From sequence record NC_031103.1: a stretch of DNA of 64,000 nt; one strand, 5' to 3'. The position numbers and the translations under genes were made by a program. Positions 1-27,712 of the stretch are shown one piece after another; the first letter of the stretch is position 1, and each line of letters opens with the position of its first letter. The notes under the pieces were generated by a model. The model was not told the DNA's origin. It made no database searches and was given only the letters and a program-made list of their open reading frames with translations. The DNA comes from Escherichia phage vB_EcoM-UFV13.

Positions 1-45
1 TCTGCTGAGTATGTTCCAGTATCTCATGGTATGTCAATGGTATAA
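1..45 (+). CDS. 17: 3' end of upstream gene (partial), probably terminase large subunit gp17 by synteny
   Basis: Open frame from window edge to TAA at 43-45, directly upstream of gene 18 as in T4 order; too short to confirm by sequence. Confidence 0.35.
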   Translation, partial: SAEYVPVSHGMSMV

Positions 46-48
46 ATA
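41..48 (+). promoter_or_regulatory. T4-type late promoter core TATAAATA for gene 18
   Basis: Exact TATAAATA about 29 nt upstream of the gene 18 ATG. Confidence 0.7.
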
Positions 49-76
49 TATTAAAGCATATTAAAGAGGATTAAAA

Positions 77-2056
77 ATGACTTTATTATCTCCGGGCATT
101 GAGCTCAAAGAAACTACGGTTCAAAGCACCGTGGTTAATAACTCTACTGGTACAGCAGCTTTGGCCGGTAAATTCCAGTGGGGTCCTGCTTTTCAAATTA
201 AACAGGTTACAAATGAAGTAGATTTAGTTAATACTTTTGGTCAACCAACCGCTGAAACTGCTGACTATTTTATGTCTGCGATGAATTTCTTGCAGTACGG
301 AAATGACTTACGAGTAGTTCGTGCTGTTGATAGAGATACCGCTAAAAACTCATCGCCAATTGCTGGTAATATTGAATACACAATTTCTACCCCAGGTAGT
401 AACTACGCGGTTGGAGATAAAATCACGGTCAAATATGTTTCAGATGATATTGAAACTGAAGGTAAAATTACTGAAGTAGACGCAGATGGAAAAATTAAGA
501 AAATTAATATTCCTACTGCAAAAATTATCGCTAAAGCGAAAGAAGTCGGTGAATATCCAACACTAGGTTCTAACTGGACTGCGGAAATTTCTTCATCTTC
601 CTCTGGTTTAGCCGCAGTAATAACTCTTGGAAAAATTATTACTGATTCTGGTATTTTATTAGCTGAAATTGAAAATGCTGAAGCTGCTATGACAGCGGTT
701 GACTTTCAAGCAAATCTCGAAAAATACGGAATTCCAGGAGTAGTAGCTCTTTATCCAGGTGAGTTGGGCGATAAAATTGAAATTGAAATCGTATCTAAAG
801 CTGACTATGCAAAAGGAGCTTCTGCATTACTCCCAATTTATCCAGGCGGTGGTACTCGTGCATCTACTGCCAAAGCAGTGTTTGGATATGGACCGCAAAC
901 TGATTCACAGTACGCTATTATAGTTCGTCGTAATGATGCTATTGTTCAAAGCGTTGTTCTTTCAACTAAGCGTGGCGAAAAAGATATTTACGATAGTAAC
1001 ATCTATATCGATGACTTTTTCGCAAAAGGCGGCTCAGAATATATTTTTGCAACTGCACAAAACTGGCCAGAAGGCTTCTCTGGAATTTTAACTCTGTCTG
1101 GTGGATTATCATCAAATGCTGAAGTAACAGCAGGAGATTTGATGGAAGCTTGGGACTTCTTTGCTGACCGTGAATCTGTTGACGTTCAACTGTTTATTGC
1201 GGGTTCTTGTGCTGGTGAATCTTTAGAAACAGCATCTACTGTCCAAAAACATGTTGTTTCAATCGGGGATGCTCGCCAGGATTGCTTAGTATTGTGCTCA
1301 CCACCGCGCGAAACTGTAGTTGGAATTCCTGTAACTCGCGCTGTTGACAACTTAGTCAATTGGAGAACCGCAACAGGTTCATATACTGATAATAACTTTA
1401 ATATTAGTTCAACCTATGCAGCAATTGATGGTAACTACAAATATCAGTATGACAAATATAATGATGTGAATCGTTGGGTCCCATTAGCAGCTGATATTGC
1501 TGGATTGTGTGCAAGAACTGATAACGTATCTCAGACTTGGATGTCTCCAGCTGGTTATAATCGTGGCCAAATTTTGAACGTTATTAAACTGGCTATTGAA
1601 ACTCGCCAGGCTCAGCGCGACCGTTTATACCAAGAAGCTATCAACCCGGTAACTGGTACAGGTGGTGATGGTTACGTATTGTATGGTGATAAAACAGCTA
1701 CTTCTGTTCCTTCTCCGTTTGATCGTATTAACGTTCGTCGTCTGTTTAATATGTTGAAAACGAATATCGGACGTAGTTCAAAATATCGTTTGTTCGAATT
1801 AAACAATGCGTTTACTCGTTCATCATTCCGCACAGAAACTGCCCAGTACTTACAGGGAATTAAAGCTCTCGGTGGAATTTATGAATATCGTGTAGTTTGC
1901 GATACAACAAATAACACTCCGTCAGTAATTGATAGAAATGAGTTTGTTGCAACATTCTACATCCAACCGGCTAGAAGCATTAACTACATTACCTTAAACT
2001 TCGTAGCAACTGCTACTGGTGCAGACTTCGATGAGTTAACTGGTCTTGCAGGTTAA
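77..2056 (+). CDS. 18: Tail sheath protein gp18
   Basis: 659 aa, same length as T4 gp18; N-terminus MTLLSPGIELKETTVQSTVVNNSTGTAALAGKFQWGP recalled as T4 gp18; ATG start. Confidence 0.95.
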   Translation: MTLLSPGIELKETTVQSTVVNNSTGTAALAGKFQWGPAFQIKQVTNEVDLVNTFGQPTAETADYFMSAMNFLQYGNDLRVVRAVDRDTAKNSSPIAGNIEYTISTPGSNYAVGDKITVKYVSDDIETEGKITEVDADGKIKKINIPTAKIIAKAKEVGEYPTLGSNWTAEISSSSSGLAAVITLGKIITDSGILLAEIENAEAAMTAVDFQANLEKYGIPGVVALYPGELGDKIEIEIVSKADYAKGASALLPIYPGGGTRASTAKAVFGYGPQTDSQYAIIVRRNDAIVQSVVLSTKRGEKDIYDSNIYIDDFFAKGGSEYIFATAQNWPEGFSGILTLSGGLSSNAEVTAGDLMEAWDFFADRESVDVQLFIAGSCAGESLETASTVQKHVVSIGDARQDCLVLCSPPRETVVGIPVTRAVDNLVNWRTATGSYTDNNFNISSTYAAIDGNYKYQYDKYNDVNRWVPLAADIAGLCARTDNVSQTWMSPAGYNRGQILNVIKLAIETRQAQRDRLYQEAINPVTGTGGDGYVLYGDKTATSVPSPFDRINVRRLFNMLKTNIGRSSKYRLFELNNAFTRSSFRTETAQYLQGIKALGGIYEYRVVCDTTNNTPSVIDRNEFVATFYIQPARSINYITLNFVATATGADFDELTGLAG

Positions 2057-2072
2057 TACGGTGCATTCTAAA

Positions 2073-2090
2073 GGCCTGTTTCGGCAGGCC
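2073..2090 (+). terminator. Stem-loop downstream of gene 18 (GGCCTG-N6-CAGGCC)
   Basis: Perfect 6-bp GC-rich inverted repeat 17 nt after the gene 18 stop; no clear U-tract, so it may be an attenuator or RNA-stability hairpin. Confidence 0.45.
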
Positions 2091-2091
2091 A

Positions 2092-2099
2092 TATAAATA
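2092..2099 (+). promoter_or_regulatory. T4-type late promoter TATAAATA for gene 19
   Basis: Exact TATAAATA immediately after the hairpin, about 74 nt upstream of the gene 19 ATG. Confidence 0.65.
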
Positions 2100-2150
2100 C
2101 ACTATATCCTTAATTCTTTAATTCTATATGCCCTAGGTTAAACATAGGGA

Positions 2151-2158
2151 TATAAATA
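2151..2158 (+). promoter_or_regulatory. Second TATAAATA motif upstream of gene 19
   Basis: Exact TATAAATA 15 nt before the ATG; the predicted start would fall in the SD (GAGG), so function is uncertain. Confidence 0.35.
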
Positions 2159-2172
2159 CTACAGAGGCTAAT

Positions 2173-2664
2173 ATGTTTGTAGATGATGTAACACGAGCGT
2201 TTGAATCTGGTGATTTTGCTCGACCTAACTTATTCCAAGTAGAAATTTCTTATCTTGGACAAAATTTTACGTTTCAATGTAAAGCCACTGCTTTGCCAGC
2301 TGGTATTGTAGAAAAAATTCCAGTCGGATTTATGAACCGTAAAATTAACGTGGCAGGAGATCGTACATTCGATGACTGGACTGTTACAGTAATGAACGAT
2401 GAAGCTCATGATGCTCGTCAGAAGTTTGTTGATTGGCAAAGCATTGCTGCTGGTCAAGGAAACGAAATTACTGGTGGAAAACCTGCAGAGTATAAAAAGA
2501 GCGCTATCGTTCGTCAATATGCTCGTGACGCTAAAACAGTAACAAAAGAAATTGAAATTAAAGGTCTGTGGCCTACTAACGTGGGTGAACTTCAATTAGA
2601 TTGGGATTCAAACAATGAAATCCAAACCTTTGAAGTAACTCTTGCTCTCGATTATTGGGAATAA
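2173..2664 (+). CDS. 19: Tail tube protein gp19
   Basis: 163 aa as in T4 gp19; position after gene 18. Confidence 0.93.
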   Translation: MFVDDVTRAFESGDFARPNLFQVEISYLGQNFTFQCKATALPAGIVEKIPVGFMNRKINVAGDRTFDDWTVTVMNDEAHDARQKFVDWQSIAAGQGNEITGGKPAEYKKSAIVRQYARDAKTVTKEIEIKGLWPTNVGELQLDWDSNNEIQTFEVTLALDYWE

Positions 2665-2669
2665 AATGA

Positions 2670-2687
2670 ATGGGGAGAAATCCCCAT
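2670..2687 (+). terminator. Stem-loop after gene 19 (TGGGGA-GAAA-TCCCCA)
   Basis: 6-7 bp perfect stem with GAAA tetraloop 6 nt after the gene 19 stop. Confidence 0.5.
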
Positions 2688-2696
2688 CCTGCTTAA

Positions 2697-4321
<1,625 letters not shown>

Positions 4322-4322
<1 letters not shown>

Positions 4323-4561
4323 TGGAAGGTTTAATTGAAGCTATTAAATCAAACGACCTCGTAGCCGCTCGTAAATTATTTGCTGAAGCCATGGCTGCAA
4401 GAACGATTGATTTAATTAAAGAAGAAAAAATCGCTATCGCTCGTAATTTCTTAATCGAAGGTGAAGAACCTGAAAACGAGGATGAAGATGATGACGAAGA
4501 TAGTGATGATAAAGACGACAAAAAAGACAAAGACTCTGACGAAGACGAGGATGATGAATAA
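4322..4561 (+). CDS. 67: Prohead core protein gp67 with poly-acidic C-terminal tail
   Basis: 79 aa; position between 20 and 68; start overlaps the gene 20 stop; C-terminal D/E-rich tract. Confidence 0.8.
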
Positions 4562-4986
4562 TGCTTCTGATCCCTGAAACTCATGAATTAGTTCTCGAGA
4601 ATGTCGAAGCACTTATTCCTGAAGCACAGGGTCGCTTTGACGAATTGTCTTCTGCTTTAAATAAAGACGATATAAATACAATTGTCGAGAATATGCTTGA
4701 TGATGAAACTGATTTAGCGATTGCATTAGCTTCTATTAATGAAAACATGCCGTTAAATGAATTTATCGTTAAACATGTTTCTGCCCGTGGTGAAATTACT
4801 CGCACTAAAGATCGCAAAACCCGCGAACGAAATGCATTTCAAACCACTGGGCTGTCTAAAGCAAAACGTAGACAAATTGCTCGCAAAGCTACCAAAACGA
4901 AGATTGCCAATCCAGCAGGTCAATCTCGTGCTCAGCGTAAGCGTAAAAAAGCTCTTAAACGCCGTAAAGCATTAGGATTAAGCTAA
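4561..4986 (+). CDS. 68: Prohead core protein gp68
   Basis: 141 aa as in T4; TAATG overlap with 67; basic C-terminus. Confidence 0.8.
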
Positions 4987-5624
4987 TGAATGAACCCCAA
5001 TTACTAATTGAAACTTGGGGTCAACCTGGCGAAATTATTGATGGTGTGCCAATGCTCGAATCCCACGATGGAAAAGACTTAGGTTTAAAACCTGGTTTAT
5101 ACATCGAAGGAATATTCATGCAAGCAGAAGTCGTCAATAGAAATAAACGTCTTTATCCAAAACGCATATTAGAAAAAGCGGTAAAAGACTATATTAATGA
5201 GCAAGTTTTAACTAAACAAGCTCTCGGAGAATTAAATCATCCTCCACGCGCTAATGTTGACCCAATGCAAGCCGCTATCATTATAGAAGATATGTGGTGG
5301 AAAGGAAATGACGTATACGGACGAGCTCGTGTTATTGAAGGTGACCATGGTCCTGGAGATAAATTAGCAGCTAATATTCGTGCCGGATGGATTCCAGGAG
5401 TTTCTTCTCGTGGATTAGGTTCATTGACTGACACAAATAAAGGTTATCGTATCGTAAACGAAGGATTCAAATTAACTGTAGGTGTTGATGCAGTATGGGG
5501 TCCAAGTGCTCCAGATGCATGGGTAACTCCTAAGGAAATTACCGAATCACAGACGGCGGAAGCCGATACAAGTGCCGATGACGCCTATATGGCTCTCGCA
5601 GAGGCCATGAAAAAAGCGTTATAA
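4986..5624 (+). CDS. 21: Prohead core protease gp21
   Basis: 212 aa as in T4 gp21; position. Confidence 0.93.
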   Translation: MNEPQLLIETWGQPGEIIDGVPMLESHDGKDLGLKPGLYIEGIFMQAEVVNRNKRLYPKRILEKAVKDYINEQVLTKQALGELNHPPRANVDPMQAAIIIEDMWWKGNDVYGRARVIEGDHGPGDKLAANIRAGWIPGVSSRGLGSLTDTNKGYRIVNEGFKLTVGVDAVWGPSAPDAWVTPKEITESQTAEADTSADDAYMALAEAMKKAL

Positions 5625-5627
5625 ATA
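5620..5627 (+). promoter_or_regulatory. T4-type late promoter TATAAATA for gene 22
   Basis: Exact TATAAATA overlapping the gene 21 stop, about 28 nt upstream of the gene 22 ATG. Confidence 0.7.
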
Positions 5628-5654
5628 TTATTATCTAAACAACAGGACTACAAA

Positions 5655-6464
5655 ATGCTTAAAGAACAACTGATTGCCGAAGCGCAGAAAATTGATGCTT
5701 CCGTTGCTCTTGATAGTATTTTCGAATCAGTTAATATTTCTCCGGAAGCAAAAGAAACTTTCGGCACTGTATTCGAAGCTACCGTCAAGCAGCACGCCGT
5801 TAAATTAGCTGAATCTCATATCGCTAAAATTGCTGAAAAAGCAGAAGAAGAAGTAGAAAAAAATAAAGAAGAAGCAGAAGAAAAAGCTGAGAAGAAAATC
5901 GCTGAGCAAGCTTCTAAATTCATTGACCATCTTGCGAAAGAATGGCTCGCTGAAAATAAATTAGCAGTTGATAAAGGCATCAAAGCCGAACTGTTTGAAT
6001 CCATGCTTGGTGGATTAAAAGAGCTCTTTGTTGAACACAACGTTGTTGTTCCAGAAGAATCAGTTGATGTTGTAGCTGAAATGGAAGAAGAGCTGCAAGA
6101 ACATAAAGAAGAATCAGCTCGTCTGTTCGAAGAACTCAATATGCGCGACGCATATATCAATTATGTGCAGCGTGAAGTGGCATTGAGCGAAAGTACTAAA
6201 GATCTGACTGAGTCTCAAAAAGAAAAAGTCTCTGCTCTGGTCGAAGGTATGGATTATTCAGATGAATTCTCAAGTAAATTGAGTGCCATCGTAGAAATGG
6301 TGAAGAAGTCTAATAAAGATGAAAGCACTATTACTGAGGGTATAAATACTCCTGATACTGAAGCAGCCGGACTGAATTTCGTCACTGAAGCTGTAGAAGA
6401 TAAATCTGCATCTGGTGCAGAAGATATTGTAAGTGTATATGCGAAAGTCGCATCTCGTTTCTAA
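5655..6464 (+). CDS. 22: Prohead core scaffold protein gp22
   Basis: 269 aa as in T4; acidic, coiled-coil-rich; position. Confidence 0.9.
   Translation: MLKEQLIAEAQKIDASVALDSIFESVNISPEAKETFGTVFEATVKQHAVKLAESHIAKIAEKAEEEVEKNKEEAEEKAEKKIAEQASKFIDHLAKEWLAENKLAVDKGIKAELFESMLGGLKELFVEHNVVVPEESVDVVAEMEEELQEHKEESARLFEELNMRDAYINYVQREVALSESTKDLTESQKEKVSALVEGMDYSDEFSSKLSAIVEMVKKSNKDESTITEGINTPDTEAAGLNFVTEAVEDKSASGAEDIVSVYAKVASRF
6341..6348 (+). promoter_or_regulatory. T4-type late promoter TATAAATA inside the 3' part of gene 22, candidate gene 23 promoter
   Basis: Exact TATAAATA about 135 nt upstream of the gene 23 ATG; no exact motif in the short 22-23 spacer. Confidence 0.45.
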
Positions 6465-6482
6465 TTTTAAAGGTTAACACAA

Positions 6483-8048
6483 ATGACTATCAAAACTAAA
6501 GCTGAACTTTTGAACAAATGGAAGCCATTACTGGAAGGTGAAGGTTTACCGGAAATTGCTAATAGCAAACAAGCGATTATCGCTAAAATCTTTGAAAACC
6601 AGGAAAAAGATTTCCAGACAGCTCCGGAATATAAAGACGAAAAAATTGCTCAGGCATTCGGTTCTTTCTTAACAGAAGCTGAAATCGGTGGTGACCACGG
6701 TTACAATGCTACCAACATCGCTGCAGGTCAGACTTCTGGCGCAGTAACTCAGATTGGCCCAGCTGTTATGGGTATGGTACGTCGTGCTATTCCTAACCTG
6801 ATTGCTTTCGATATTTGCGGTGTTCAGCCGATGAACAGCCCGACTGGCCAGGTATTCGCACTGCGCGCAGTATATGGTAAAGACCCAATCGCTTCCGGTG
6901 CTAAAGAAGCATTCCACCCAATGTATGGTCCAGATGCAATGTTCTCTGGTCAGGGTGCTGCTAAGAAATTCGCTGCTTTGGCTGCTAGCACACAAACTAC
7001 AGTAGGTGATATCTATACTCACTTCTTCCAGGACACTGGTACTGTGTATCTGCAAGCTTCTGTTCAAGTAACAATCGATGCTGGTGCGACTGATGCTGCT
7101 AAATTAGATGCTGAAATTAAGAAACAAATGGAAGCTGGTGCACTGGTAGAAATCGCTGAAGGTATGGCTACTTCTATCGCTGAACTCCAGGAAAGTTTCA
7201 ACGGTTCTACCGATAACCCATGGAATGAAATGGGCTTCCGTATCGATAAACAAGTTATCGAAGCTAAATCTCGCCAACTGAAAGCTGCTTACTCTATCGA
7301 ATTAGCACAAGACCTCCGTGCTGTTCACGGTATGGATGCTGATGCTGAACTGTCTGGTATTCTGGCTACAGAAATCATGCTGGAAATCAACCGTGAAGTT
7401 GTTGATTGGATTAACTACTCAGCTCAGGTTGGTAAATCTGGTATGACCCTGACTCCGGGTTCTAAAGCTGGTGTATTTGACTTCCAGGACCCAATCGATA
7501 TTCGTGGTGCTCGCTGGGCAGGTGAATCCTTTAAAGCTCTGTTGTTCCAGATTGACAAAGAAGCAGTTGAAATTGCTCGTCAGACCGGTCGTGGTGAAGG
7601 TAACTTCATTATCGCTTCCCGTAACGTAGTTAACGTTCTGGCTTCAGTTGATACCGGCATTTCTTATGCTGCACAAGGTCTGGCTACCGGCTTTAACACT
7701 GATACTACCAAGTCAGTATTTGCTGGTGTTCTGGGTGGTAAATACCGTGTATATATCGACCAGTATGCTAAACAGGATTATTTCACTGTAGGTTATAAAG
7801 GTCCGAACGAAATGGATGCTGGTATTTACTACGCTCCATATGTAGCTCTGACTCCGCTGCGTGGTTCCGATCCGAAGAACTTCCAACCAGTAATGGGATT
7901 CAAAACTCGTTACGGTATCGGTATCAACCCATTTGCAGAATCCGCTGCTCAGGCTCCGGCTTCTCGCATCCAGAGCGGTATGCCTTCTATTCTGAATAGC
8001 CTTGGTAAAAACGCTTACTTCCGCCGTGTATATGTTAAAGGTATCTAA
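6483..8048 (+). CDS. 23: Major capsid protein gp23
   Basis: 521 aa as in T4 gp23; strongly codon-biased, highly expressed-type sequence. Confidence 0.96.
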   Translation: MTIKTKAELLNKWKPLLEGEGLPEIANSKQAIIAKIFENQEKDFQTAPEYKDEKIAQAFGSFLTEAEIGGDHGYNATNIAAGQTSGAVTQIGPAVMGMVRRAIPNLIAFDICGVQPMNSPTGQVFALRAVYGKDPIASGAKEAFHPMYGPDAMFSGQGAAKKFAALAASTQTTVGDIYTHFFQDTGTVYLQASVQVTIDAGATDAAKLDAEIKKQMEAGALVEIAEGMATSIAELQESFNGSTDNPWNEMGFRIDKQVIEAKSRQLKAAYSIELAQDLRAVHGMDADAELSGILATEIMLEINREVVDWINYSAQVGKSGMTLTPGSKAGVFDFQDPIDIRGARWAGESFKALLFQIDKEAVEIARQTGRGEGNFIIASRNVVNVLASVDTGISYAAQGLATGFNTDTTKSVFAGVLGGKYRVYIDQYAKQDYFTVGYKGPNEMDAGIYYAPYVALTPLRGSDPKNFQPVMGFKTRYGIGINPFAESAAQAPASRIQSGMPSILNSLGKNAYFRRVYVKGI

Positions 8049-8063
8049 TCTTTGACGATTTAA

Positions 8064-8079
8064 GGGACCTTCGGGTCCC
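8064..8079 (+). terminator. Intrinsic terminator after gene 23 (GGGACC-TTCG-GGTCCC then T-run)
   Basis: Perfect 6-bp GC stem with UUCG tetraloop followed by TTTAGTTGTTTTT. Confidence 0.8.
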
Positions 8080-8096
8080 TTTAGTTGTTTTTATGG

Positions 8097-8104
8097 TATA
8101 AATA
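8097..8104 (+). promoter_or_regulatory. T4-type late promoter TATAAATA for gene 24
   Basis: Exact TATAAATA about 28 nt upstream of the gene 24 ATG. Confidence 0.7.
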
Positions 8105-8131
8105 AATCATATAAACCAAAAGGAAAGCGCA

Positions 8132-9415
8132 ATGGCTAAAATCAACGAACTTCTGCGCGAATCAACCACAACGAATAGCAACTCAATCGGTCGCCCAAAT
8201 CTCGTTGCTTTGACTCGCGCTACCACTAAATTAATATATTCTGACATTGTAGCAACGCAAAGAACTAATCAACCTGTTGCTGCTTTTTACGGTATCAAAT
8301 ACCTTAACCCAGATAACGAATTTACGTTTAAAACTGGTGCTACTTACGCTGGCGAAGCTGGATATGTAGACCGAGAACAAATCACAGAATTAACAGAAGA
8401 GTCTAAATTAACACTCAATAAAGGCGATTTATTCAAATATAATAATATCGTTTATAAAGTATTAGAAGATACTCCATTTGCTGATATTGAAGAAAGCGAC
8501 TTAGAGTTAGCTCTTCAGATTGCAATCGTTCTTTTAAAGGTTCGTCTATTTTCTGACGCAGCGTCAACAAGCAAATTTGAAAGCTCTGATAGCGAAATTG
8601 CGGATGCTAGATTCCAGATTAATAAATGGCAAACCGCCGTTAAATCTCGTAAACTTAAAACTGGTATCACAGTTGAATTAGCACAAGATTTAGAAGCAAA
8701 CGGATTCGACGCTCCTAATTTCCTGGAAGATTTGCTTGCAACTGAAATGGCAGATGAAATCAATAAAGATATTCTACAGTCTTTGATTACAGTATCAAAA
8801 CGTTATAAAGTTACAGGAATTACTGATACTGGATTCATTGATTTGAGTTATGCATCTGCTCCTGAAGCAGGTCGTTCATTATACCGAATGGTATGTGAAA
8901 TGGTTTCACATATCCAAAAAGAATCAACTTATACAGCAACGTTCTGTGTTGCTTCAGCTCGTGCCGCTGCGATTCTTGCTGCATCAGGTTGGTTAAAACA
9001 TAAACCAGAAGATGACAAATATCTTTCACAAAATGCCTACGGGTTCTTAGCTAATGGTTTACCGCTTTATTGCGATACTAACAGCCCATTAGATTATGTA
9101 ATCGTTGGTGTAGTAGAAAATATCGGTGAAAAAGAAATTGTTGGATCAATTTTCTATGCTCCGTATACAGAAGGTCTCGACTTAGATGACCCTGAACATG
9201 TAGGTGCATTTAAAGTTGTGGTTGATCCAGAAAGCTTACAACCGTCTATCGGTTTATTAGTTAGATATGCTTTATCAGCAAATCCTTATACCGTAGCAAA
9301 AGATGAAAAAGAAGCAAGAATAATTGACGGTGGAGACATGGATAAAATGGCAGGTCGTTCAGATTTGTCTGTTTTATTAGGTGTTAAGCTACCAAAAATT
9401 ATTGTTGATGAATAA
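8132..9415 (+). CDS. 24: Capsid vertex protein gp24
   Basis: 427 aa as in T4 gp24; gp23-like fold region (compare ...YYAPYV... in gp23 with ...FYAPYT... here). Confidence 0.93.
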   Translation: MAKINELLRESTTTNSNSIGRPNLVALTRATTKLIYSDIVATQRTNQPVAAFYGIKYLNPDNEFTFKTGATYAGEAGYVDREQITELTEESKLTLNKGDLFKYNNIVYKVLEDTPFADIEESDLELALQIAIVLLKVRLFSDAASTSKFESSDSEIADARFQINKWQTAVKSRKLKTGITVELAQDLEANGFDAPNFLEDLLATEMADEINKDILQSLITVSKRYKVTGITDTGFIDLSYASAPEAGRSLYRMVCEMVSHIQKESTYTATFCVASARAAAILAASGWLKHKPEDDKYLSQNAYGFLANGLPLYCDTNSPLDYVIVGVVENIGEKEIVGSIFYAPYTEGLDLDDPEHVGAFKVVVDPESLQPSIGLLVRYALSANPYTVAKDEKEARIIDGGDMDKMAGRSDLSVLLGVKLPKIIVDE

Positions 9416-22937: not shown

Positions 22938-22940
22938 CAA

Positions 22941-22960
22941 TGGGGACCGAAAGGTCCCCA
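22941..22960. terminator. Bidirectional terminator between gene 54 (+) and the minus-strand early block
   Basis: TGGGGACC-GAAA-GGTCCCCA hairpin with T-runs, between convergent genes. Confidence 0.8.
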
Positions 22961-22965
22961 TATTT

Positions 22966-23256
22966 TTATTTACGGAATGAAATAAAAGCAGCAACTGAAG
23001 CAACTAAACTGTCTTCAATATAAACTTCAATTTTTACCGGAGCTTCTGACTCAAATTTACCTGTTACTACACCTTGAAAAATACTTTCAGTCTGTTCTGG
23101 CTTTGAAAAATTTTCAGAAGGAAAAATTCCGAACTTTTTATCCGTTCCAAAAATTTTGATAAATTCATCGTAAACTGCTTCATTAAAAGCATTATCAGCA
23201 GGAATAACGCCTTCAACTACAAGTTCTTGACCTAAAAAGCGCAAAGAAGATTTCAT
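22966..23256 (-). CDS. Hypothetical protein, 96 aa
   Basis: ATG start with GAGGA SD 7 nt upstream; own early-type promoter; no recognisable domain. Confidence 0.55.
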   Translation of the reverse strand: MKSSLRFLGQELVVEGVIPADNAFNEAVYDEFIKIFGTDKKFGIFPSENFSKPEQTESIFQGVVTGKFESEAPVKIEVYIEDSLVASVAAFISFRK

Positions 23257-23287: not shown

Positions 23288-23317
23288 ACTATAACACAAC
23301 ATAAGGAACTTGTAAAC
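23288..23317 (-). promoter_or_regulatory. T4 early-type promoter (GTTTACA - 17 nt - TATAGT) inside a conserved leader element, copy 1
   Basis: Minus strand GTTTACA overlapping the alt-paralogue stop, 17-nt spacer, TGTTATAGT; about 90% identical to the element at 38261-38316. Confidence 0.55.
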
Positions 23318-25374
23318 TACATTTTGAACTTTTTAGACATTCCGTTGATGTTAACCAAAGAAGCTAAGATTTGAGAAACTTCGTTTTCCTCTTCTTTTGA
23401 TTCTTCTACAAGGAATTGATTAAATCCAGTCATTGGACGAACTTCACCAGTTTCCATCAGATGGTCGCCATCATATACTGATTCTTCTAATTGTTCAGAA
23501 GGAGGAACGATTGTACCTTCGATTAGATACTTGTTATAAGCAGTTTCTTTCATAAAGTAAGTACTTACTTTATTAATCTTCAGTAAAATTCCACGCGGTA
23601 GAATAACTTCAGCTTCTGATGGAAATCCTGATAAATGACCTGGAACGATAACTTTGATTCGCTCAGCTCCTTTAATTACCATACCCACGCTAGTTTCAGC
23701 ATCTTCATTAGCATATGTAGAATGACTACCCATATGCATTAAATCTTCGGCATCAACGGAACCTTCTCCTTCACCAGAAAATACTGCGCCGGAATCATCT
23801 AGAGCCATATAGTTTTTACCATGCTCACCGAAGATATTTGGTTTAAGCGATGTGGATACGAAGTTCTTGAAATAGAACATTTTATTTTCAATGTTATGAC
23901 GCAAAGTTTTAAAGGTAACTTCTTGTCCACGGTAAAGTGTAGTTCCTGGAGGAAGAACTGATCCTTTGGCAAAGGCAGAATCCAACGTCTCGATGTGCTT
24001 AATAGCTCGTTCCATGTATTCTTCACGGGTAGAATCTGGTTTACCCAAAAGGAACGAGTTCATTTCAACATATGAATCTGCACAATAATCTTCAATTACA
24101 TCAGATTCAGCTTGGGTTAGTCCTTTTGGAGTTACTTCGGTGCTTGCGTATTCATATGCCTGAGCAGCAGATTCATTAATCAATTTATAAATGCCATTCA
24201 TTACAAATTGAATAATAGCTGTCTTTTCATCTGGTGTAGCTTTAGAACCTTTAACTAAATCATTGATAATTTTCTTAATAACATCAAAGCTATTAGAAAT
24301 ATTAATGTCAGCAAGATCACTTAAAATTTTATCAGTTTTATAATCAAAGAATTCTTTATTCTTTAAATATTCTTGAGAACCTTGATATGTTATATCGCTC
24401 TGCAGCTTGATAGATGGATCGCGTAAACGTGCATGGGCCAATGCAATATGATTTCGGAAGCTTTCTAGTTCATAATCGTTAGATTTAAAACGAGAAGCAC
24501 TTCTCATACCACCGATAGCTCCTTTGCTGAAGTTTGAACCAATCTGAATAACGCCAGAGTTCATTGGTCCTTCTGCTTTATATACCGGAACCTTAGATTC
24601 AAACTCTTGATATTTCTTAGCAGCGAAGCTATCACCCTGAAGTGAAGCGTCAACAGTAGAATATTGAGCTTGTGCTGCTAATCGACGACTAATTTTAGTT
24701 TTCTGAATAACAGCTTGGTCAGTACGTTTATCATTTTCTAAAGCAATAGAAGCAGCAACAGCGACAGCTTTAGGAACAGCATTACCTGTTTTAACGTCTA
24801 CATAAACATCACCAACCTTTGATTCAACTTTTGTGAATAACTCAGTTGAAATAGGAGGTACACCTGGAATGTCTTCTAAATTGGCATTTTTACGGTAAAC
24901 CATAATATATGCATATTTCTTATCATAGTCCCAGATTTCCTTTAAGAGAACATATCGACCTGCTCCTTTAGTACGTACTAAACGGTCAGCAATAACTTGC
25001 ATTTGACGAGCAGCGCCATTTGTTTTACTTTTTAGTACGCGGAATAGGCATGCATCAATTTTATACTGCTTCATTGTTTGAAGAGCAGTATCAAAAACAG
25101 CATTAATGACACCAATTGGATTTCCACCCAAGTTTCTAAGCTTAACCAGCGATAATTTCTCGTTGACACCTATCATTACGATATGCATCATTTTATCGCC
25201 TGGCTTAACGTTTTTATTTGTATCACCGCCAGAGGTGTATGTACAAAATCTAAATCCAGGAAGCACACTTTCTTCACCGGCTTGAATAGCAAAAATTTGA
25301 GGTATTTTATGCTTAGGATTTAAGTTAACAACCGGCGCCGAAGCGCCGTCAAATAATTCTGTAATAAGTTCCAT
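23317..25374 (-). CDS. Alt-family ADP-ribosyltransferase paralogue (head-packaged Alt-like protein)
   Basis: 685 aa; N-terminal about 230 aa and C-terminal ART region align with the adjacent Alt; central region diverged. Confidence 0.85.
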   Translation of the reverse strand: MELITELFDGASAPVVNLNPKHKIPQIFAIQAGEESVLPGFRFCTYTSGGDTNKNVKPGDKMMHIVMIGVNEKLSLVKLRNLGGNPIGVINAVFDTALQTMKQYKIDACLFRVLKSKTNGAARQMQVIADRLVRTKGAGRYVLLKEIWDYDKKYAYIMVYRKNANLEDIPGVPPISTELFTKVESKVGDVYVDVKTGNAVPKAVAVAASIALENDKRTDQAVIQKTKISRRLAAQAQYSTVDASLQGDSFAAKKYQEFESKVPVYKAEGPMNSGVIQIGSNFSKGAIGGMRSASRFKSNDYELESFRNHIALAHARLRDPSIKLQSDITYQGSQEYLKNKEFFDYKTDKILSDLADINISNSFDVIKKIINDLVKGSKATPDEKTAIIQFVMNGIYKLINESAAQAYEYASTEVTPKGLTQAESDVIEDYCADSYVEMNSFLLGKPDSTREEYMERAIKHIETLDSAFAKGSVLPPGTTLYRGQEVTFKTLRHNIENKMFYFKNFVSTSLKPNIFGEHGKNYMALDDSGAVFSGEGEGSVDAEDLMHMGSHSTYANEDAETSVGMVIKGAERIKVIVPGHLSGFPSEAEVILPRGILLKINKVSTYFMKETAYNKYLIEGTIVPPSEQLEESVYDGDHLMETGEVRPMTGFNQFLVEESKEEENEVSQILASLVNINGMSKKFKM

Positions 25375-25377
25375 GAT

Positions 25378-27474
25378 TTATCCTTGAACGAACTTGTAAG
25401 GCATGTTTGTAATATCTATGCAAGACGCAATAATTCCAAGAGATGATTCTACTTTCTGTTTAACATTTGATGAAACAAATGATGCAAAGTCAACTCTGTC
25501 TTCTACTTCAATATCACCTGTCATTGCAACTACTTCACCGGTTTCCATTAAATGGTCTCCGTCATAGATTACCGATTCGGTGAGCTCTTCCGTAGTCATA
25601 ACTTCAGCTTGAATGAGTTTTGTATTATTAGATGTTGTTCCGTCATTATTAGAAGCATCAGTTATTTTATTAACTTTGACCATCAATCCGCGCGGTAGAA
25701 TAACTTCAGCTTCTGTTGCTATTCCGAGACTTCCTGGATATACAACATTAACTTTATGAGCTCCATCAATTGCCCATCCTATTTGAACTTTAACGTATTC
25801 AGGATTTTCTTTATACGCTCTTATTTCGTTTGGATTAATAGTTATTCCTTCTTCATTTTTATCAACTGTTAATTCATTGCGAGCTTCTGGTTCTAAAAGA
25901 CCAATACCAGCATGTGTAATTCCAAAACGTCCAAAAATGATAGGAGTTAAAGAAGTAGATACAAAATTTCTGAAATAGAACACTTTATTTTTAACTAGTG
26001 CTTCGTATATAGGAGCAGTCATACTTTGAGCACGATAAACTGTAATGCCTTCCGGTATGCGGTCACCATTTTCAAAAGCTGAATCTAAATTATTTATAGC
26101 AGATTCAATTTCTTTTTCACTCATTACATCATATCGTTCTGGATTGTAACGACCTAAAAGAAGATTATTAATGTCTGTATATCCTGAACCACAATATTCT
26201 CTAATACCTCGCTTTTGTGATGGAGTATATTTAGAACCATCACGGGCGATAGTAATATCAATCATTGGACCAGCGCCAATTCCGGAAAAGCTATAAATCA
26301 TTCGTTTGAGGAATTTAGTTTTTGCCGCATTCCAGGCATTTTTAGTTATTTCTCCCCAGACTTCATCTGACTGCCCTTTACGAGTTTTATTATGTTTATC
26401 AAGCCAATTATCTTTGTATTCTTCAAAGAATTTATTAACAGCTGCTGCGTATTTCTCTAAACATTTTATTGAAGTAGTTGGTTCATTTTTGATTGCGTTA
26501 AAAATTACATCTTTAATTTTTTCTGAAACTTCATCAACCTCACTTTTTGAAAAGAATTTATAGTCATAGTGAAGTTCATTCGCAGTTCCTTCGGCAATAA
26601 TTTTTGCTGCCTTAGTTTTAGAAGCTAATGAATTAATTCCAAGCTTCATTTCTTCTGCTTCGGGAATTAAAGGAGCGGTAGCAGGTTTATTGAAATTAGC
26701 TGCGGTAGATTCATACTTCTGGAATAATTCACTTTCAAATCTAGAAGATTCCAATGATTGACTTTGCGCAATTGCTCTACGGGAAATTTTAACTTTAACG
26801 ATTACAGCTTGGTCAGAACGCTTATCATTTTCTTGCGCAATAGATGCTGCAATTGCCTCATTTTTAGTTACTTGGGCTCCAGTATCTTTATTGATATAAA
26901 CATCACCGACCTTCGATTCAACTTTAGTAAAGAGCTCGGTACTAATTTCCGGAACTCCTGGAATGTCTTCTAGCGATACATTTTTGCGATGTATAAGAAT
27001 ATATGCATACTTTTTATCGTAATCCCAGAGTTCCTTAAGAAGGACGTATCTGCCACCTGAACGACTACGGATAAGTCTATCAGCAATAACTTGAATTTGT
27101 CGAGCTTGACCAGCAGTTTTAGACTTAAGAATACGAAGCATACAAGCATCAATTTTATATTGACGCATAGTTTGCATTGCAACAGTAAAAACTGAATTGA
27201 TATAATTAATTGGGCTTGGACCAAGACCTTTTAATTTAGCAATTGAACCTTTAGCAGTTAATGTAAAAGGAACAATATGCATCATTTTATCGCCCATCTT
27301 TAAATCGCGATTAGTATCACCTCCAGATGTATAGGTACATAAACGAAAGCCTGGTTGTTCAATTGCATCATCAACATGAACTGAAAAAATTTGTGGTATT
27401 TTCTTCTTTGGATTTAAGTTTGTAATCGGAAGAGTAGTATCTTCGTCAAATAATTCTGTAATAAGTTCCATCAT
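25378..27474 (-). CDS. alt: Alt ADP-ribosyltransferase
   Basis: 698 aa; N-terminus MELITELFDEDTTLPITNL and C-terminus IASCIDITNMPYKFVQG recalled as T4 Alt; ART motifs (YRxQ-like, STSL, EAEVILPRG). Confidence 0.9.
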   Translation of the reverse strand: MMELITELFDEDTTLPITNLNPKKKIPQIFSVHVDDAIEQPGFRLCTYTSGGDTNRDLKMGDKMMHIVPFTLTAKGSIAKLKGLGPSPINYINSVFTVAMQTMRQYKIDACMLRILKSKTAGQARQIQVIADRLIRSRSGGRYVLLKELWDYDKKYAYILIHRKNVSLEDIPGVPEISTELFTKVESKVGDVYINKDTGAQVTKNEAIAASIAQENDKRSDQAVIVKVKISRRAIAQSQSLESSRFESELFQKYESTAANFNKPATAPLIPEAEEMKLGINSLASKTKAAKIIAEGTANELHYDYKFFSKSEVDEVSEKIKDVIFNAIKNEPTTSIKCLEKYAAAVNKFFEEYKDNWLDKHNKTRKGQSDEVWGEITKNAWNAAKTKFLKRMIYSFSGIGAGPMIDITIARDGSKYTPSQKRGIREYCGSGYTDINNLLLGRYNPERYDVMSEKEIESAINNLDSAFENGDRIPEGITVYRAQSMTAPIYEALVKNKVFYFRNFVSTSLTPIIFGRFGITHAGIGLLEPEARNELTVDKNEEGITINPNEIRAYKENPEYVKVQIGWAIDGAHKVNVVYPGSLGIATEAEVILPRGLMVKVNKITDASNNDGTTSNNTKLIQAEVMTTEELTESVIYDGDHLMETGEVVAMTGDIEVEDRVDFASFVSSNVKQKVESSLGIIASCIDITNMPYKFVQG

Positions 27475-27494
27475 AGCCTCTCTAGTGTTTATTC

Positions 27495-27502
27495 TATTTA
27501 TA
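27495..27502 (-). promoter_or_regulatory. T4-type late promoter for the alt tandem (TATAAATA on the minus strand)
   Basis: TATTTATA on the + strand, 21 nt upstream of the alt ATG; Alt is a late, head-packaged protein in T4. Confidence 0.6.
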
Positions 27503-27507
27503 AAATT

Positions 27508-27525
27508 AAAGGCCCGAAGGCCTTT
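27508..27525 (-). terminator. Stem-loop (AAAGGCC-CGAA-GGCCTTT) overlapping the stop of the 62-aa ORF
   Basis: Palindromic 7-bp stem with tetraloop between the ligase operon and the alt late promoter. Confidence 0.55.
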
Positions 27526-27712
27526 AGTAATCTAGTGGTAAGAGAGTACGATATATTTCAAACTTTGGTCCTTTTTCATAGGCATCAAATGTTTCTGTAA
27601 ATTTATTATAAGCGTATGCATCTACAAATTCGAGAATGACTTGTGATACAGAAGTAGAAACATCTCCACCTTCTTTTTGAGCAATGACAATTGTTTCTAA
27701 GTAAGCTTTCAT
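27524..27712 (-). CDS. Hypothetical protein, 62 aa, translationally coupled to DNA ligase
   Basis: ATG overlaps the ligase stop (ATGA). Confidence 0.5.
   Translation of the reverse strand: MKAYLETIVIAQKEGGDVSTSVSQVILEFVDAYAYNKFTETFDAYEKGPKFEIYRTLLPLDY

Follow-up and report, generated by a model that had tools for sequence, protein, structure and literature searches.

Alt2 of Escherichia phage vB_EcoM-UFV13, a predicted second injected ADP-ribosyltransferase whose gene is a remnant in T4

The window analysed here, i.e. the whole 64,000-nucleotide stretch of Escherichia phage vB_EcoM-UFV13 (NC_031103.1), contains two large tandem genes, alt and alt2, which encode paralogous ADP-ribosyltransferases (ARTs) of the Alt family; the T4 member of this family, Alt (gpAlt, NP_049811), is an NAD+–arginine ADP-ribosyltransferase that modifies RNA polymerase (alpha Arg265). 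We consider it probable that Alt2, the product of the downstream gene, is a second packaged, injected and arginine-specific ADP-ribosyltransferase with a target set of its own, and that the pair is the ancestral alt locus. The gene structure, the paralogy, the catalytic residues, the purifying selection, the fold, the distribution and the lesion found in T4 carry this reading, with packaging, injection, arginine specificity and distinct targets as its predicted part. The two genes are:

25378..27474, minus strand: alt (Alt1), positional and sequence orthologue of T4 Alt; PF03496 match at 2e-37; phrog_802
23317..25374, minus strand: alt2 (alt.-2 in RB32, "Alt2" in BASEL phages), intact 685-aa paralogue of Alt

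The source is a Tequatrovirus (T-even phage) in which gp29, gp48 and gp54 are followed, on the opposite strand, by alt.-3, the two large open reading frames (ORFs), alt.1, DNA ligase and 30.1-30.3. The 4.9-kb alt region is 97-98% identical to that of RB27, RB32, T2 and T6, and for the neighbouring 24 kb the best match to any deposited phage amounts to 96.5% identity. The upstream ORF encodes 698 amino acids (aa) from its first ATG and 697 aa from a second one at 27471, the start used in the RB32 annotation and likely the true one.

Architecture and catalytic residues of the two paralogues

The sequence-only reading had described the ORFs of 698 and 685 aa as paralogues with a similar N-terminus and ART core and a diverged centre, and this description holds. 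Alt and Alt2 are 42% identical over their full length (BLASTP, E=5e-161), both score above the gathering cut-off of PF03496 (ADPrib_exo_Tox; 128.7 bits for Alt1 and 71.9 bits for Alt2, the cut-off being 23.4), and both match PHROG 802, "Alt-like RNA polymerase ADP-ribosyltransferase" (E=2e-256 for Alt2 against phrog_802). The identity is unevenly distributed, being 68% in the N-terminal region (residues 1-235), 35% in the ART domain and about 46% in the C-terminal tail, as opposed to 17-22% in the centre. All the shared motifs quoted in that reading are present, with the single correction that Alt2 has KQYKIDAC in place of RQYKIDAC. The parts of Alt2 are the following:

24670..25374, minus strand: N-terminal alpha/beta domain, aa 1-235; Pfam PF26846 (Tevenvirinae_ADPRT); includes the gp21 site MELITE/LF shared with Alt (the slash marks the cut)
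24133..24669, minus strand: central all-helical domain, aa 236-414; 17-22% identical to the centre of Alt and unrelated to it in sequence
23500..24132, minus strand: ADP-ribosyltransferase domain, aa 415-625; C3/Vip2/iota-like R-S-E fold with R482, S507-T-S and E587-x-E589
23608..23634, minus strand: ARTT loop and ExE motif, aa 581-589, LSGFPSEAE; canonical for the family (L-S-x-[YF]-P-x-E-x-E)
23317..23499, minus strand: C-terminal tail, aa 626-685; family-conserved YDGDHLMETGE motif and terminal helix

From the N-terminus on, the AlphaFold2 model of Alt2 (mean pLDDT 81, pTM 0.74) comprises an alpha/beta domain (residues 1-235), a middle made up of helices only (240-415), the ART domain (415-625) and a final helix. 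A Foldseek comparison with the PDB aligned the ART domain with Vis, Certhrax, C3bot, CDTa and Vip2 (E=5e-7 to 1e-4, probability 1.00, target TM-score ~0.6), and the same solved ARTs are reached by a profile search with Alt2; a phmmer search of Alt2 against the PDB sequences gave 0 matches, hence no solved Alt structure was found. Alt and Alt2 both have near their end the C-terminal motif of the family, Y-D-G-D-x-x-x-E-T-G-E, in which D635, G636, D637 and G643 are nearly invariant; a helix comes next, and P/S-x-K-F closes the protein. The confidence of the model is low in this region.

The catalytic motifs of Alt2 are LYR482GQ, FVS507TS and SE587AE589VILPRG. When conservation was scored in a 60-sequence family alignment (Alt2 numbering), the only invariant columns of the catalytic half proved to be Y430, D465, R482, S507, E587, E589, R594 and G595. 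A loss of catalytic residues by the downstream copy, which would have spoken against a second active enzyme, is therefore not what is found: R482, S507, E587 and E589 are all kept. ExE-type enzymes modify arginine, whereas the QxE-type C3 enzymes modify asparagine, so that from its ExE motif Alt2 is predicted to be specific for arginine. By count on NP_049811, the ExE glutamates of T4 Alt are E574 and E576, to which the catalytic mutant E577A (PMC11404850) approximately corresponds, a one-residue offset remaining.

The loop that precedes these glutamates differs between the paralogues. The aromatic position of the ARTT loop is occupied by Y or F in 41 of the 60 family members, Alt2 among them, whereas both Alt1 of the source phage (LG-IATEAE) and T4 Alt (SLAPSNEME) lack the serine as well as the aromatic residue. 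This difference, together with the unrelated central domain, which is a candidate for target selection, and with the differing phenotypes of a transposon screen (see below), lends indirect support to the earlier suggestion that a diverged second copy could have a different target.

What would bring such an enzyme into the head? The gp21 prohead protease recognises a propeptide ending in (L/I)-x-E. Alt2 begins with MELITELFD, identical to Alt through residue 9, with E6 nearly invariant in the family, and thus displays at the sequence level the same site as Alt, MELITE/LFD; the GenBank entry X15811 notes that 6 aa are cleaved off T4 Alt. T4 gpAlt is a prohead-core protein present in ~40 copies per head, whose N-terminal peptide is cut by gp21 and which is injected with the DNA (PMC9958956, PMC9026906). 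The N-terminal domain of Alt2 is proposed to be a head-packaging and delivery module, and the late promoter, the coupled start, the conserved N-terminal domain and MELITE make it parsimonious that Alt2 would share the packaging, trimming and injection of Alt. For the fold of this part a second model, covering residues 1-415 (pLDDT 86.6), was used: Foldseek against viral models places the N-terminal fold also at the start of large myovirus proteins that are uncharacterised (E=1e-5 to 1e-3), some of which carry effector-type domains of other kinds (zeta toxin, deaminase, ParB/Srx), as fits a modular delivery domain. A Pfam scan of the proteins that match Alt2 in the N-terminal domain only (P0200, P0217, P0218 and P0229) found no domains.

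The pathway that we envisage begins with late transcription of alt and alt2 from the TATAAATA promoter and with translation of Alt2 through coupling or from its own Shine–Dalgarno sequence. Both products are built of four parts (an N-terminal alpha/beta domain with the prohead-protease site, a helical middle, a C3/Vip2-like ART and a conserved tail), and the shared N-terminal domain would bring them into the prohead core, where gp21 would remove MELITE. Ejected together with the DNA, Alt and Alt2 would mono-ADP-ribosylate arginines of host proteins at the expense of NAD+ as soon as the next infection begins, the targets of Alt2 differing from those of Alt as dictated by the unrelated middle domain and the different ARTT loop.

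Distribution, selection and the lesion in T4

A copy of Alt2 at least 80% identical was found by tblastn in 401 phage records, the carriers including T2, T6, RB32, RB27 and Bas37. The same layout (ligase, alt.1, ART, ART, alt.-3, gp54) occurs in the Dhakavirus phage dhabil, and the tandem arrangement is likewise found in a divergent metagenomic contig (L004). Since it is shared by Tequatrovirus, Dhakavirus and this contig, the tandem pair is ancestral and standard and T4 is the exception; on these comparisons the complete two-gene locus is the ancestral form.

The sequence-only reading had left open whether T4 carries the second copy, and had set a standard and characterised tandem pair in T4 as an outcome that would refute its reading. 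The pair is indeed standard in T-even phages, but what T4 has is a frameshifted and deleted version: its alt.-1 and alt.-2 align with alt2 at ~95% DNA identity along ~340 nt at the 5′ end and ~20 nt at the 3′ end and are the remnant of this gene. The positions of the lesion, projected onto the intact gene of the window, are:

25211..25215, minus strand: A5 run at codon 54 of alt2; one A is missing in T4, the resulting frameshift splitting the remnant into alt.-1 and alt.-2
25027..25035, minus strand: upstream copy of the 9-bp direct repeat CTAAAAAGT; left end of the T4 deletion
23328..23336, minus strand: downstream copy of CTAAAAAGT; right end of the T4 deletion

The T4 deletion covers 1,699 bp and runs exactly between the two CTAAAAAGT copies. 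Among a spread sample of the 501 Tequatrovirus records matched by the T4 remnant region, the T4-type deletion, recognised by an end-to-end match to the remnant, was present in about one fifth, while the others matched only the 5′ part of the remnant. Having been lost from T4 by a frameshift and a repeat-mediated deletion, alt2 was never studied in the model phage.

The gene has not gone unrecorded, however, and its novelty as a second copy was overrated in the sequence-only reading. A note in the T4 record states that alt.-1/alt.-2, between alt and alt.-3, go back to an old duplication of the initial portion of alt, and alt duplications in T4, RB49 and 44RR were listed by Nolan et al. 2006 (PMC1524935). 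The RB32 record carries alt.-2 as "similar to alt", RefSeq labels both genes of T2, T6, RB3 and RB27 "Alt-like RNA polymerase ADP-ribosyltransferase", and in the BASEL phage KarlGJung (Bas37) the gene is called "ADP-ribosyltransferase Alt2" (bas37_0032). Thus, the pair is already annotated and is standard in T-even genomes, Alt2 being functionally uncharacterised.

That the intact gene is maintained by selection is indicated by the ratio of non-synonymous to synonymous substitution rates (dN/dS). For Alt2 this ratio is 0.019 between the source phage and RB32 (42 synonymous and 3 non-synonymous changes) and 0.029 between the source phage and KarlGJung (69 and 8), and for Alt1 it ranges from 0.025 to 0.043 against the same two phages. 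Compared with the 75%-identical orthologue of L004, Alt2 yields 0.13 for the whole gene, with 0.04 for the N-terminal domain, 0.17 for the centre, 0.16 for the ART domain and 0.08 for the C-terminal tail. Over the first 121 codons the T4 remnant gives 0.18 against the source-phage gene, as opposed to 0-0.03 among intact orthologues, which places the remnant under relaxed constraint.

These values dispose of the suggestion that the downstream copy is a decaying duplicate, a pseudogene in the making. It is a remnant in T4 and truncated in some genomes, as such a suggestion would have it, but it is a full-length open frame in the source phage and in ~400 genomes, with dN/dS of 0.02-0.13, and by comparison it is the T4 remnant that has been relaxed; with the selection analysis having already ruled it out, we attach next to no probability to decay. 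Truncated forms do occur: P0006 (36 member sequences) is an ORF that starts from M62, at the T4 alt.-2 start just past the T4-type frameshift site, P0008 starts from M158 and P0010 from M271, and these truncated ORFs point to further independent disruptions of alt2.

Mosaic alleles, natural hybrids and the target of Alt2

A domain-wise comparison shows that the N-terminal domains cluster by genome and the effector parts by gene copy. The N-terminal domains of paralogues within one genome are 64-68% identical, as opposed to 41-47% between Tequatrovirus and Dhakavirus, whichever copies are compared. On the other hand, the centre, ART domain and tail are 17/35/45% identical between paralogues of one genome, 44/57/63% between Alt2 and copy 2 of dhabil and 64/82/53% between Alt1 and copy 1 of dhabil. 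The best reading of this matrix of identities is an old homogenisation of the N-termini within each genus. Recent gene conversion was considered as the cause of the conserved N-terminus and ruled out, the synonymous divergence (dS) of the paralogous N-termini being saturated at 1.55; any homogenisation must accordingly be old.

Alt1 itself is a mosaic. Relative to T4 Alt (alt, 25378-27474, was compared with T4, L001 7455-9503, and with dhabil, L003 701-2761), its N-terminus and tail have a dS of ~0.1 and its centre and ART domain one of 1.2-1.6; the amino acid identity, 70% overall, is 100% in the N-terminus, 95% in the tail, 32% in the centre and 66% in the ART domain, the last of these falling short of the 82% that it shares with copy 1 of Dhakavirus. 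The T2-type allele, that of the source phage, is present in ~315 phage records and the T4-type in ~211.

Some phages have natural hybrids, in which the 5′ part of Alt1 is joined to the remainder of Alt2: the finished genomes of ECML-134, vB_EcoM_SCS4 and Yersinia phage PST are of this kind, as are four metagenomic contigs. The hybrid, with 684-686 aa, is the single gene between alt.1 and alt.-3 in all three genomes and in the two contigs that continue beyond it, the remaining two stopping just after the gene. The hybrid genes lie at:

L007 1742-3802 (ECML-134) and L008 742-2802 (PST)
L005 4001-6055, L006 4001-6061, and L009 and L010 3501-5561

The crossovers fall at codons ~52, ~100-104, ~157, ~185 and ~221, within microhomologies of 2-13 nt, and all the hybrids are in frame and possess the Alt2 catalytic motifs. 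An origin as assembly artefacts was ruled out on two grounds, namely that the longest run of identity between alt and alt2 (27 nt) is shorter than the k-mers of assemblers (one contig is named k99) and that the finished genomes of ECML-134, SCS4 and PST are in the same state. The junctions mark the hybrids as products of unequal crossovers between the tandem N-terminal repeats, at no fewer than five sites, each removing the Alt1 effector; the existence of natural fusions of an Alt N-terminus with an Alt2 body argues for the N-terminal domain being an exchangeable delivery module. The PST gene annotated as "alt" is such a hybrid and carries the Alt2 effector.

A more far-reaching view, which we hold to be possible but rather doubtful, is that the locus works as a two-cassette effector-exchange system: the conserved N-terminal domain, which would stay similar in the tandem copies of any one phage lineage, would serve both for packaging and as a recombination handle, unequal crossovers in it would time and again delete one "warhead" and leave a single Alt-N::Alt2 hybrid gene, effectors would be swapped between genera, and Alt2 would be injected as an effector in its own right. 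Its target, which might belong to a defence system or be some housekeeping protein that is not RNA polymerase, would have stayed hidden because T4 lacks the gene.

The functional data that bear on these readings come from the HIDEN-SEQ transposon libraries of T4 and Bas37 (bioRxiv 10.1101/2025.11.20.689424, a 2025 preprint whose text does not discuss Alt2); Bas37 Alt and Alt2 are 98% and 99% identical to the proteins of the source phage. Strain CFE331 selects against insertions in alt of Bas37 (log2 fold change −1.56, adjusted p about 0) but not against those in alt2 (+0.12); the alt2 values are 0.00 on CFE303 and +0.11 and +0.19 on two more sheets, which by file position are CFT073 and probably CFE299 (bioRxiv 10.1101/2025.11.20.689424). 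Saturation of the reference library is 116 of 164 TA sites for alt2 (0.71, "Intermediate") and 164 of 179 for alt (0.92, "Non-essential"), and on K-12 the read counts of alt2 are 4.6-fold below those of alt (bioRxiv 10.1101/2025.11.20.689424). The screen establishes that alt and alt2 are not interchangeable; it does not reveal how Alt2 acts.

A redundant role, with Alt2 as a back-up or dosage copy of Alt that modifies whatever Alt modifies in the host, RNA polymerase alpha included, would be in keeping with the architecture, promoter and N-terminal domain common to the two proteins and with the loss of either effector in nature, T4 having only Alt and ECML-134 and PST only the Alt2 body. Nevertheless, ART domains that are 35% identical, unrelated middle domains, differing ARTT loops and lineages that have been separate since before the Tequatrovirus/Dhakavirus split (dS saturated) are hardly those of a spare copy and, since on CFE331 Bas37 needs Alt and not Alt2, we regard redundancy as decidedly unlikely.

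The low insertion counts bring up another alternative, i.e. that Alt2 is mainly a structural component of the prohead core, its enzymatic activity being secondary. Alt is a core protein and the alt2 insertions fall in the "Intermediate" class independently of the host, with the 4.6-fold lower counts on K-12, but the strict conservation of the catalytic residues, the dN/dS of 0.16 in the ART domain and the normal heads made by T4 without Alt2 render this role very improbable.

Could Alt2 instead be a counter-defence warhead, or act on RNA or DNA, or carry out RNAylation like ModB, rather than being a factor of transcription takeover? ExE-type C3/Vip2-like ARTs are modifiers of protein arginine, which goes against a non-protein substrate. 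A role in counter-defence would agree with the mosaic and fast-evolving effector parts that accompany a conserved delivery domain, with the joining of the N-terminal fold to other types of effector in other phages, with the fact that injected internal proteins of T-even phages are anti-restriction factors (PMC12373910) and with the finding that T4 Alt is needed to evade Mokosh type I in an allele-specific manner, Bas37 Alt being no substitute (bioRxiv 10.1101/2025.11.20.689424). Alt2 showed, however, no conditional phenotype on the four clinical strains covered, and this group of alternatives appears unlikely to us, if conceivable.

Several points weigh against Alt2 being a second injected enzyme with its own targets, which is nonetheless the reading that we prefer. 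T4 and ~100 relatives thrive without alt2 and the truncated forms P0006, P0008 and P0010 occur, so that Alt2 must be dispensable in many settings; in the Bas37 screen none of the four clinical E. coli strains covered revealed a conditional phenotype for it, and its low insertion counts could be a technical or a polar effect. The argument drawn from the ARTT loop is based on what is known of C3-like toxins and not on Alt biochemistry. No functional, biochemical or virion-proteomic study of the second copy was found in the literature, nor anything direct on Alt2 in virions, on its injection or on its enzymatic activity, and no Alt2 target is on record.

Expression of the locus and comparison with known systems

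The elements that would govern expression of the two genes are the following:

27507..27526, minus strand: terminator-like hairpin TAAAGGCCTTCGGGCCTTTA with a T-run, after alt.1 and before the alt late promoter
27495..27502, minus strand: T4-type late promoter TATAAATA; first ATG of alt 21 nt downstream
26091..26098, minus strand: second exact TATAAATA, inside alt, where it encodes A-I-N-N; 717 nt upstream of the Alt2 ATG
25381..25385, minus strand: Shine–Dalgarno AAGGA for Alt2, within the last codons of alt
22940..22961, no strand assigned: strong bidirectional terminator hairpin ATGGGGACC-GAAA-GGTCCCCAT, a perfect GC-rich 9-bp stem between the convergent genes 54 and alt.-3

The octamer is nearly sufficient for T4 late promoters. 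The sequence-only reading had placed a late promoter before the upstream copy only; this stands for the intergenic promoters, TATAAATA being confirmed at 27495-27502, but has to be amended by the second copy at 26091-26098. Two copies of the consensus, one upstream of the pair and one inside alt, would allow late transcription of alt2. The upstream TATAAATA is found also in T4, RB32 and L004; the internal one is present in RB32 and absent from T4, dhabil (L003) and L004, and may be either an internal late promoter boosting the transcription of alt2 or a chance match, the latter being a possibility because the octamer encodes A-I-N-N. No exact TATAAATA was found across the Dhakavirus alt locus (L003, dhabil, 1-8885) in spite of the same gene layout, so that its late promoter must either differ from the T4 consensus or sit elsewhere.

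At the junction, ...AAGGA TAA ATC ATG, the stop codon of alt (25378-25380) and the ATG of alt2 (25372-25374) are exactly 3 nt apart, as had been reported, and this proximity makes translational coupling of alt2 to alt likely. The hairpin at 27507..27526 appears to insulate the alt genes against early and middle transcription from upstream. The one at 22940..22961 scores as a terminator on both strands, differs from its T4 counterpart by 2 nt, and is the probable end of the late alt-alt2(-alt.-3) transcript.

As to the flanking genes, alt.1 (27524-27712, minus strand; 62 aa) matches Pfam PF24647 "Phage_blade" at 2e-29; it overlaps the stop codon of the ligase gene, and after it comes the terminator situated ahead of the late promoter of alt. 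On the other side, alt.-3 (22966-23256, minus strand) encodes a 96-aa DUF5498 protein and has its own sigma-70/T4-early-like promoter (TTTACA, 17 nt, TG-TATAGT) at 23288-23316 on the minus strand, directly after the Alt2 stop codon. Mutants of T4 Alt.-3 with a C-terminal extension evade the CmdTAC defence system (PMC11618068).

What is known of phage-injected ADP-ribosyltransferases comes nearly entirely from T4, which is a deletion mutant for the second enzyme of most of its relatives. Should Alt2 have targets of its own, this could help to explain how T4 and the other T-even phages differ in host takeover and in sensitivity to defence, and Alt alleles are already seen to differ in defeating Mokosh type I in the recent screen. 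The N-terminal domain, as a portable packaging module, might serve for bringing foreign proteins into phage heads, and the single gene labelled "alt" in PST and ECML-134 should be understood as carrying the Alt2 effector and not a T4-type one. A predicted injected enzyme that is absent from T4 and under strong purifying selection, at a locus with recurrent loss and exchange of cassettes, represents a tractable lead.

Of the known systems, T4 Alt resembles Alt2 in domain order, in the N-terminal 9 residues with the cleavage site, in late promoter context, in the R-S-ExE residues and in the C-tail; yet Alt2 is only 41% identical to it, has an unrelated middle domain and possesses the canonical ARTT loop that T4 Alt lacks. 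Alt2 is not its orthologue: the upstream gene is 70% identical to T4 Alt, and Alt2 occupies the second position and matches T4 alt.-1/alt.-2. The latter two are the same gene in the same position as alt2, from which they differ by the A lost from the A5 run and by the 1,699-bp deletion. RB32/ime09 alt.-2, KarlGJung Alt2 and the "Alt-like" proteins of T2/T6 are orthologues, 97-99.9% identical and in the same tandem arrangement, with no real difference. The Dhakavirus pair (JS10/JS98/dhabil) has the same layout, its copy 2 being the nearest non-orthologous relative of Alt2 (48-51%), but its N-terminal domains are genus-specific, as the 41-47% identity across genera versus 64-68% between paralogues indicates.

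Farther away, the C3-like/Vip2/iota-type toxins (PF03496) share their fold and three motifs (R, STS and ExE) with Alt2 at a sequence identity below 20%, the Alt family having in addition ~415 aa at the N-terminus, for delivery and with the helical region, as well as a conserved C-tail. T4 ModA and ModB, too, fall within the R-S-E clade of phage ARTs (PMC5512222) but are small, expressed early and not packaged, unlike Alt2 with its Alt-type packaging architecture. Finally, the MuF-fused and polyvalent head-packaged effectors obey the same logic, a conserved head-association module combined with an exchangeable effector, although the delivery module of the Alt family is PF26846 and not MuF, its similarity to a GNAT-like fold being weak at most.

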